The notes: generated by a model not told the origin, from the letters alone. A DNA stretch of 64,000 nt from Planctomycetota bacterium (GCA_030616775.1 JAUWWQ010000006.1:1-64000), one strand, 5' to 3'; shown: positions 18,961 to 19,440, counted from the first letter of the stretch. Program-made: numbers and translations.

Positions 18961-18981
18961 GCCTCAACCTTCCATTGCACA

Positions 18982-18999
18982 GAATGCGGAATGGTGAAT
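18982..18999. repeat. Left arm of a perfect 18-bp inverted repeat (GAATGCGGAATGGTGAAT) flanking the four-helix-bundle gene
   Basis: It is the exact reverse complement of 19422-19439. It is followed by further 'gcggaatgcgg' repetition. Confidence 0.85.
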
Positions 19000-19031
19000 G
19001 CGGAATGCGGAAAACAGACCCCCAAAGCGCA

Positions 19032-19388
19032 CTACCGACCGCGGGAACGCTTCGCTATTGTCGTAATGATGCGCACCAACTCGTCGGCCTCTCGCAATAG
19101 GTCTGCCACGCGGCTTTTCGGAACCAGTCCACACTCCGCCACAATACGCAACCAGTATAGGACTTCGCGAGCCTCGGATTGCGCGATCTCCATCCGGCGC
19201 GCGAACTCCTTCTTCGAGGAGGCCGCCTGCGCCTCCTCCACGTTGGCTCCGACGCTGGTCCCGGCCCGCATTACCTGCCTGGCGATAACGCCGCCCGCAA
19301 CCGTGCGAGGCAGAGAATTCACCAACCGGACGATTCGGGTGGCAAACTGGAACGAGCGCTCGGTTATGTCGCGAACGCGAGCGGACAT
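19032..19388 (-). CDS. Four-helix-bundle protein of the '23S rRNA intervening sequence protein' family (TIGR02436-like), inserted between atpG and atpD
   Basis: 118 aa. 'ERSFQFATRIVRLVNSLPRT...ARQVMRAGTSVGANVEEAQAASSKKEFARRMEIAQSEAREVLYWLRIV' matches the conserved pattern of this family (QxxRAxxSIxxNIAEG...KEF...A.GS..E). Confidence 0.75.
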   Translation of the reverse strand: MSARVRDITERSFQFATRIVRLVNSLPRTVAGGVIARQVMRAGTSVGANVEEAQAASSKKEFARRMEIAQSEAREVLYWLRIVAECGLVPKSRVADLLREADELVRIITTIAKRSRGR

Positions 19389-19399
19389 TCATCATTCAC

Positions 19400-19439
19400 C
19401 ATTCACAATTCACCATTCACAATTCACCATTCCGCATTC
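19400..19439. repeat. Right arm of the 18-bp inverted repeat (ATTCACCATTCCGCATTC at 19422-19439), preceded by tandem 'attcaccattcaca' repeats
   Basis: 'caccattcacaattcaccattcacaattcaccattccgcattcg'. The right arm is the reverse complement of 18982-18999. Confidence 0.85.
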
Positions 19440-19440
19440 G

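Follow-up and report, generated by a model that had tools for sequence, protein, structure and literature searches.

On the window's minus strand (the window being our name for the whole 64-kb stretch of DNA analysed here) the ATP synthase genes atpH, atpA, atpG, atpD and atpC follow one another, and a small gene with its flanking repeats fills the spacer between atpG and atpD almost exactly (Table 1). We refer to this gene and its two repeat arms as the cassette; it is co-directional with the operon. In profile searches, the 118-aa open reading frame (ORF) scored well above the cut-offs of both PF05635 (82 bits against 33.8) and TIGR02436 (98.2 bits against 24), confirming what a sequence-only reading of this DNA had proposed, namely a four-helix-bundle gene between the same-strand genes atpG and atpD. 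At the level of sequence similarity, phmmer matched the protein to PDB 2rld_A (E 5.8e-17, residues 8-116) and to 2gsc_A (XCC0516; E 1.6e-3). An in-frame TGA stands directly 5′ of its ATG. Scans for sigma-70-like promoters and intrinsic terminators found none flanking the cassette on the coding (minus) strand, and co-transcription with the atp operon is therefore expected. Specifically, the GC-rich hairpin and U-run of a typical terminator are absent at the cassette on the minus strand, where UGUGCAAUGG comes after the 3′ arm. Rfam gave no match on 16800-20500, PADLOC defence profiles returned 0 families at E <= 0.01, and neither a second PF05635 gene nor a further copy of the arms was present within the 64-kb window.

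Table 1. Features of the atp region along the window's minus strand, in the order of transcription.
Feature	Coordinates	Strand	Description
atpH	22119-22721	minus	
atpA	20376-22100	minus	
atpG	19441-20322	minus	ATP synthase gamma; PF00231, E 2.7e-87
5′ arm	19384-19439	minus	8 heptamers: GAATGCG GAATGGT GAATTGT GAATGGT GAATTGT GAATGGT GAATGAT GAATGTC
Four-helix-bundle ORF	19032-19388	minus	118 aa; PF05635 / TIGR02436, 'S23p' family
3′ arm	18982-19013	minus	About 4.5 heptamers (NNCATTC), complementary to the 5′ arm: TTTCCGC ATTCCGC ATTCACC ATTCCGC ATTC
Linker from stem base to atpD ATG	18961-18981	minus	TGTGCAATGGAAGGTTGAGGC, 21 nt
atpD	17512-18960	minus	ATP synthase beta, downstream cistron; PF00006, PF02874, PF22919
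atpD-atpC spacer	17398-17511	minus	Non-complementary tandem arrays
atpC	16945-17397	minus	

The perfect 18-bp inverted repeat that had been described around the gene was exact at both ends, with GAATGCGGAATGGTGAAT at 18982-18999 and its reverse complement at 19422-19439 (18 nt). When up to three mismatches were allowed, this 18-nt repeat had eight matches, all of them within the two arms, compared with 0.07 expected by chance. The inverted repeat as a whole reaches 31 nt at 84% complementarity. When the transcript strand was folded, the 18-bp helix closed the minimum free energy (MFE) structure as well as the centroid (z = -2.5). The proposed stem with the ORF in its loop also stood. On the transcript, the 5′ arm reads as eight GAATGNN units from 19439 to 19384, the final one of which includes the start codon of the ORF, and TRF assigned to this array a period of 7 and 6.7 copies. 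The tandem repeats pointed out by the earlier reading are thus real, but the 14-mer and 11-mer units that it gave for them are not, the true period being 7. Upstream, just 1 nt separates the atpG stop codon (TAG, 19443-19441) from the 5′ arm, whose perfectly paired part is the outermost 18 nt (19422-19439), while the 3′ arm runs on the transcript from 19013 to 18982 and ends 21 nt before the ATG of atpD. The linker in between carries the purine-rich, SD-like stretches GGAAGG and GAGG, and ..GGAAG.. is kept in the orthologues. A motif at 15370-15395 had been listed as a relative of the arms. It exists as a weak heptamer/14-mer array (about 15358-15397), but no complementary partner was found for it, and any relation to the cassette would be conjectural. 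It lies between convergent Clp_N and RHH genes and, being unpartnered, was not counted into the cassette.

Conservation, decay and selection at the atp operon

Orthologues of the gene at 95, 80, 71, 70 and 68% identity were all located between atpG and atpD, and further homologues at 53% and 67% identity also lay in this spacer, with similar arms. We surveyed the spacer by an AtpG alignment scan with one genome per species. The AtpG type of the window is common to Phycisphaerae and Thermoanaerobaculia/Holophagales. Eight Phycisphaerae loci in the scan carried the gene, in spacers of 448-534 nt. In this comparison with related genomes, which the earlier reading had suggested, there were also sites without the insert: it was absent from some Phycisphaerae (L015, L056, L057, L067, L081 and L047) and from all of the approximately 55 Acidobacteriota loci scanned, and the empty atpG-atpD spacers measured 20-100 nt. 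The neighbour-joining (NJ) tree of AtpG does not resolve the deep branches, and for gain or loss it can be used at the shallow contrast between L014 and L015 only. There, the empty L015 is the sister of the insert-bearing L014 in one well-resolved clade, indicating a clean loss. Other loci formed a decay series. The ORF was frameshifted in L012 and interrupted by an in-frame stop in L070, L030 kept both arms around an ORF reduced to the C-terminal fragment DELVRILTTIVKRSR, and L045 and L043 carried heptamer hairpins without an ORF.

Where the ORF is intact, it has been under purifying selection, with dN/dS values of 0.07-0.15 against its orthologues; atpG gave 0.08-0.29 when the same pairs were compared, and the dN of the ORF and that of atpG correlate (r = 0.75). 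Taken together, the site shared down to 53% identity, the purifying selection and the dN that tracks atpG indicate that the cassette is an old, vertically inherited resident of the atpG-atpD spacer whose protein has been kept functional, and these sequence comparisons rule out a recent insertion. The 'discrete mobile or selfish insertion' of the earlier reading was thus supported as to discreteness, given the presence/absence pattern and the occurrence in dozens of unrelated operons described below, but not as to recent mobility at this site, and the term would hold only on an evolutionary scale. The same reading had counted against itself a gene conserved at this position in distant relatives with no copies elsewhere: the gene is indeed in place in distant relatives, yet related copies occur elsewhere.

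As to the arms, six orthologous loci shared an unchanged 30-nt core of the 3′ arm, TTCCGCATTCCGCATTCACCATTCCGCATT, although the dS of their flanking genes is 0.24-1.6. The upstream spacer of 52 nt in the window shrinks to 31 nt in the 95%-identical orthologue, L001; among close relatives, changes in heptamer number come in 7-nt steps. The arms co-varied across lineages: those of the window are of the type GAATGCG/CGCATTC, those of L070, L091 and L092 of the type GAATGCA/TGCATTC and those of L093 of the type GAATGGC/GCCATTC, while L076 pairs GAAGATC GAAGAGC GAATGGC with GCCATTC GCTCTTC GATCTTC over 31 perfect bp. The duplex energy of the L076 arm was -60 kcal/mol with its own 3′ flank and -25 kcal/mol or weaker with those of other loci; this self-versus-cross matrix is informative for diverged arm types only, as core-clade loci share their arms. 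The arms are lineage-specific yet complementary within each locus, and the stem is either under selection or kept up by an active process.

The spacer between atpD and atpC constituted a second site. A second PF05635 gene was located there in L008 and L072, with AAAGTTC/GAACTTT arms; identity between these two 'b' copies was 72%, falling to only 50-59% with the 'a' copies from these genomes. ORF-less heptamer hairpins occupied this spacer in L060 (GAATGCG arms, -35.9 kcal/mol), L043, L004 and L010 (a 229-nt version), and solo arrays were found in L012, L091 and L092. In the window, GAAACGTC is repeated three times at 17485-17512, after the atpD stop, and four TAACTGA-like heptamers at 17402-17431 stop 2 nt short of the atpC ATG. 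The spacer was discarded as a hairpin, its arrays being non-complementary and its fold no better than that of shuffled sequences (z = -0.3). The 5′ arm of L010, AAAACGTCGAAATGCC, resembles TAAACGTCGAAATGCGG of the window. With low confidence, we take the atpD-atpC spacer of the window for what decay may have left of a second cassette or hairpin.

The bracketing layout in the PF05635 family

A metagenome scan yielded 80 loci with proteins 40-63% identical, 68 of which had usable flanks. In 50 of these 68 homologues the stem formed between the upstream and downstream flanks scored above each of 100 shuffles. Arrays of period 7 were present in 29 upstream and 28 downstream flanks, compared with 4 and 0 for periods 5, 6, 8, 9 and 10 together. 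The median stem score was 15 when a locus was paired with itself and 7 across loci, and the self stem exceeded the 95th percentile of the cross-locus scores at 42 out of 67 loci. On the sense strand, 1051 of the 1482 paired positions of the 5′ arm were purines. Among stem positions that depart from Watson-Crick pairing there were 34 G:U and 37 A:C pairs; without a G:U excess they carry no sense-strand RNA signature, so that the complementarity could be kept at the DNA level. As a test for such a signature the comparison was uninformative, most stem mismatches being heptamer variants paired out of register.

The placement of the stems recurred from locus to locus. Median distances from their base were 2.5 nt to the stop of the gene upstream and 13 nt to the start of the gene downstream, and the 5′ arm ended at a median of 13 nt from the ATG of the enclosed gene, often running into it. 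Neighbouring genes were mostly co-directional (51/58 upstream, 41/58 downstream). In function they were mutually unrelated, including ATP synthase, glycine cleavage (gcvP), purine (pur) and tryptophan (trp) synthesis, NADH dehydrogenase (nuo), fumarase, Cas1 and methyltransferases, and the contexts seen also included cas, restriction-modification and DISARM loci. Rfam searches on 20 of the homologue loci returned two tRNAs only, with neither an rRNA context nor a known RNA family. Among cultured bacteria, we took a sample of annotated 'four helix bundle protein' genes on plasmids (n = 6) and found arms of this layout around all six. Specifically, Nostoc flagelliforme carries TTCAAAA x4 against TTTTGAA x4 (29 bp perfect), N. 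punctiforme AGGTCGG/CCGACCT, Planktothrix CCCCAAT and CGTAAAT arrays, Bernardetia GATTAGT x16 and Treponema GAAAGNG x17; Chlorohelix has arms of the same layout. The CCCCAAT of the Planktothrix arms we take to be the cyanobacterial STRR1. Contexts in the cultured genomes include drmD, the four-helix-bundle gene and MmeI in a row, and DUF1156, the four-helix-bundle gene and HEPN. The bracketing layout belongs to the PF05635 gene family, not to the atp operon, and it recurs in unrelated operons and in different phyla.

Proposed mechanism and alternative explanations

We consider it reasonably probable that the locus is a cassette of the intervening sequence (IVS) type residing in a protein-coding operon, whose arms pair, loop out the ORF and offer a site for RNase III processing, and which entered early in Phycisphaerae. 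In the polycistronic atp transcript, the arms would pair into a perfect helix of 18 bp, or of 26-31 bp with mismatches. This pairing would loop the ORF out and place side by side the stop of atpG, at 1 nt from the stem, and the ribosome-binding region of atpD, at 21 nt from it, so that the insertion would be tolerated by the operon and the stem would have an 'insulating' role. By analogy with the 23S IVSs of Coxiella, Leptospira and Salmonella, the long duplex would be an expected RNase III substrate, and a cut would part atpG from atpD on the atp mRNA and free a stem-closed, monocistronic four-helix-bundle mRNA. Since the ORF is conserved here and decaying in Coxiella, any such cleavage must leave a translatable mRNA or be partial. 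The perfect helix, at just 18 bp, speaks against the cleavage model. Once in the atpG-atpD spacer, the cassette would have been inherited vertically with a functional protein, and its later fates would differ by lineage: pseudogenes, ORF-less heptamer hairpins, solo repeat tracts or clean loss.

Such retention at one site could also mean that the host has adopted the module, the stem and/or the protein serving the atp operon and the likeness to an IVS reflecting ancestry only. For example, expression of atpD and atpC could be uncoupled from that of atpG or tuned relative to it, or autoregulation could arise through binding of the protein to the heptamer arrays. An exact site kept to 53% identity, an ORF dN/dS as low as that of atpG and a 30-nt stretch of the 3′ arm that is invariant at dS values up to about 1.6 are in line with this, as is the proposal that heptamers 5′ of start codons are sites for post-transcriptional regulators (PMC4679880). 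We nevertheless hold a host-adopted module to be unlikely: the same cassette occurs in dozens of unrelated operons and has been cleanly lost in close relatives, which argues against an atp-specific role. Specifically, it was lost unreplaced in L015, it is absent in all Acidobacteria with this atpG type, and pseudogenised copies persist with their arms intact. Long vertical retention at one site would suit a host-adopted function equally. Heptamer arrays that abut start codons are widespread (PMC4679880), and a stem acting on translation alone would have the 5′ array as a leader and the 3′ array as an anti-leader that keep synthesis of the four-helix-bundle protein low or conditional, with no endonucleolytic processing. 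The median distance of 13 nt from the 5′ arm to the ATG, and the last 5′-arm heptamer in the window, which includes the ATG, would fit this arrangement. To this explanation we give very little credit. The perfect pairing lies 34 nt upstream of the ATG of the window and the ATG-proximal heptamers pair poorly; in addition, it leaves the persistence of ORF-less hairpins unexplained, and homologous IVS stems are demonstrably cleaved (PMC4990558).

Paralogous cassettes have unlike arms, even where they share an operon (the 'a' and 'b' copies of L008 and L072), and the arms show no conserved terminal site for a dedicated recombinase. The cassette lacks a transposase, and no target-site duplication was evident on reading the window sequence. 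In addition, the strand polarity (5′-arm purines at 1051/1482 positions) and the co-orientation with neighbouring genes point to a constraint on the transcript. All of these observations tell against an element acting at the DNA level, in which the arms would serve as cruciforms or hairpins for recombination, transposition or slippage and owe their complementarity to quasi-palindrome (template-switch) correction, and we regard it as quite improbable in spite of three points in its favour: the stems have no bias between G:U (34) and A:C (37), the heptamer number moves in 7-nt steps among close relatives, as in Coxiella strains, and ORF-less hairpins and solo arrays are common, resembling MITE-like derivatives. 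As a contributor to the IVS-type cassette that we favour, maintenance of complementarity at the DNA level by slippage and quasi-palindrome correction is live. On a broader and speculative reading, which we think rather unlikely, PF05635 genes with complementary heptamer arrays would be widespread self-propagating cassettes on rRNA, housekeeping and defence transcripts. The four-helix-bundle protein would act on its own heptamer RNA or DNA and copy the cassette, and the ORF-less hairpins and many heptamer arrays (the Xanthomonas GGGAATC pairs and those of the cyanobacterial STRR type) would be non-autonomous remnants. Within this speculation, the protein, as an Avd homologue, could for instance bind nucleic acids as a cofactor of reverse transcription or recombination that is supplied in trans, and the targets would be transcribed spacers and hairpins.

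One architecture, a PF05635 gene between complementary heptamer arrays with the stem base abutting the neighbouring cistrons, appears to unite three things that had been viewed apart: the ORFs of 23S IVSs, the 'four helix bundle protein' genes scattered among operons and the unexplained excess of tandem heptamers in bacterial genomes. If the stems are RNase III sites, essential polycistronic mRNAs, that of atp among them, would have to be processed at these points, and the harmless insertion of a gene into an operon or an rRNA helix would be simply explained. With its ORF conserved, its stem defined and both empty and decayed alleles found in nature, the locus also offers a tractable system for the function of a very common family.

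Comparison with known systems

ORF-bearing 23S rRNA IVSs occur, besides Coxiella, in Leptospira, Brucella and Xanthomonas. The IVS of Coxiella burnetii measures 428 nt and has a 28-bp terminal stem that RNase III cuts in vitro, with ends inside the stem, and two to three tandem GACAGAT heptamers, variable among strains, precede its S23p ORF (PMC4990558). There the cut takes away the ribosome-binding site and the RNA of the IVS is broken down; its ORF is decaying and, it appears, not translated (PMC4990558). The atp cassette shares with it the protein family, an ORF inside a terminal-inverted-repeat stem and the need for host transcription (PMC4990558). It also has tandem heptamers of variable copy number upstream of the ORF (8 x GAATGNN in the window), and the likeness in both stem and upstream heptamers is therefore closer than the IVS-like architecture originally claimed. 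The two differ in their host sequence, which is the atpG-atpD mRNA spacer here and helix 45 of 23S rRNA in Coxiella; the flanks of our cassette are atpG and atpD rather than parts of an rRNA gene. They also differ in that the ORF is under strong purifying selection here and decaying in Coxiella, and in that the Coxiella IVS is cut by RNase III whereas cleavage of the atp transcript would follow by analogy.

Intercistronic hairpins processed by RNase III are known from phage T7 early mRNA, rpsO-pnp and the rnc leader. Like these, the cassette places a long duplex between cistrons that could part the upstream and downstream messages, but the known hairpins enclose no gene and have no tandem heptamers. 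In Xanthomonas campestris, an array of the GGGAATC type begins 6 nt past bccP and overlaps the start of XCC0516 (PMC4692102 supplement), whose product is cited as having been reported to form a homopentameric toroid (in PMC4990558). XCC0516 (PDB 2GSC) is therefore, like the gene in the window, a PF05635 gene outside rRNA, right behind a housekeeping gene (bccP) and with an array overlapping its start; it differs in heptamer sequence, and no paired downstream array is listed for it. The X. campestris genome contains approximately 70 convergent heptamer pairs, for example at groES-groEL, and these arrays were treated as G-quadruplex motifs, with no connection drawn to the PF05635 family (PMC4692102).

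Two further candidates were rejected. The accessory protein of diversity-generating retroelements (DGRs), Avd, is a PF05635-like four-helix bundle (PMC10053308), and the cassette protein has the homologous fold. The window, unlike an Avd locus, has no adjacent reverse transcriptase and no TR/VR-like repeats, its longest direct repeat anywhere being at most 26 nt, and the neighbours of the gene are atpG and atpD. An IS- or MITE-type DNA transposon was discarded as well: the arms differ between both paralogous and orthologous cassettes, and the sole ORF is the four-helix-bundle gene, with no transposase. Outside the arms, no direct repeat was visible by eye in the window (..TAGC, arm ... arm, TGTG..).

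The TAACTGA repeats of Beggiatoaceae, Cyanobacteria and Bacteroidetes are intergenic 7-mers that often abut start codons, show indels in steps of 7 nt and, as direct repeats 5′ of start codons, have been proposed as sites of post-transcriptional regulators (PMC4679880). The TAACTGA-like units of the window, ending 2 nt before the atpC ATG, resemble them; unlike the cassette, such repeats are on record as direct arrays that bracket no gene, and the description draws no link to PF05635 (PMC4679880). PF05635 genes in cas operons were earlier taken as functionally tied to CRISPR-Cas (PMC3936711), and the recurrence of the cassette calls for caution with guilt-by-association annotation of PF05635 genes, for example at cas loci. 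In a literature search that reached a minority of subscription journals, we found no work that connects PF05635 genes outside rRNA to complementary heptamer arrays on their two sides. The cassette is best read as of the IVS type known from rRNA, here in mRNA operons, and the IVS-like reading of the locus is supported and generalised.

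Subunits of the operon and frames of the 5′ arm
AtpA from relatives was 571-644 aa long against 574 aa in the window, and in all of them, the window included, a variable-length insertion was present relative to the usual alpha subunit. The alpha subunit of ATP synthase usually measures ~500-515 aa. When AtpG was compared, Phycisphaerae sequences (atp loci L012-L091) shared 62-74% identity with those of Thermoanaerobaculia/Holophagales (Acidobacteriota), and the sequences of the two phyla interleaved in the AtpG tree. This likeness could reflect an operon type of shared ancestry or lateral transfer.

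The 5′ arm of the four-helix-bundle cassette carried ATG in all three frames because its GAATGNN unit has a period of 7, and the GGTGAAT units additionally carried TGA. This was not general among other arm types, such as AAAGTTC or GAAGATC.

Coordinates of the features discussed
Feature	Position	Strand	Detail
Motif CCCCGCACCAATT	178-499; 1554-1579	both orientations	repeated
Palindromic hairpin of CCCCGCACCAATT	429-499		one instance, 33 nt
Clp_N-domain gene	14856-15299	+
Weak heptamer/14-mer array	15358-15397		AATTCGT AATTCAC AATTTGC AATTAGT
Ribbon-helix-helix/Arc-like gene	15403-15585	-	60 aa
TAACTGA-like direct repeats	17398-17431	-	TAACTGA CAACTGA CAACTGA TAACTAG
Octamer GAAACGTC x3	17485-17512	-	directly after atpD stop
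5′ arm of the cassette	19384-19439	-
atpA	20376-22100	-

Cassettes and repeats in other contexts
PF05635 cassettes were also housed in defence or mobile-element operons of the Planktothrix (L179) and Chlorohelix (L176) plasmids and of Nostoc punctiforme pNPUN01 (L174), where the contexts comprised DISARM drmD - 4HB (four-helix-bundle) - MmeI, DUF1156 - 4HB - Swt1/HEPN, and a cassette adjoining Tn7-like tnsA and xisH/xisI. At some loci (Planktothrix; Treponema L178), the heptamer arrays were nested or multiple, with two different units. Close homologues in the protein search lay mostly on very short contigs (~0.5-2 kb), consistent with assemblies breaking at heptamer arrays.

Two further repeats were observed in the window. 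The weak array lies between the convergent Clp_N-domain and ribbon-helix-helix/Arc-like genes, and no complementary partner was found for it. The motif near the window start looks like a REP-like element with no relation to the heptamer arms.

Arrays of the atpD-atpC spacer
The octamer that follows atpD resembled AAAACGTCGAAATGCC, the 5′ arm of a hairpin without an ORF that occupies the same atpD-atpC site in another atp locus (L010). At the other end of the spacer, the atpC start codon lies 2 nt past the end of the TAACTGA-like heptamers. TAACTGA heptamers placed likewise relative to the start codon have been described in Beggiatoaceae, Cyanobacteria and Bacteroidetes (PMC4679880), and both their unit and their placement match those of the array preceding atpC in the window.
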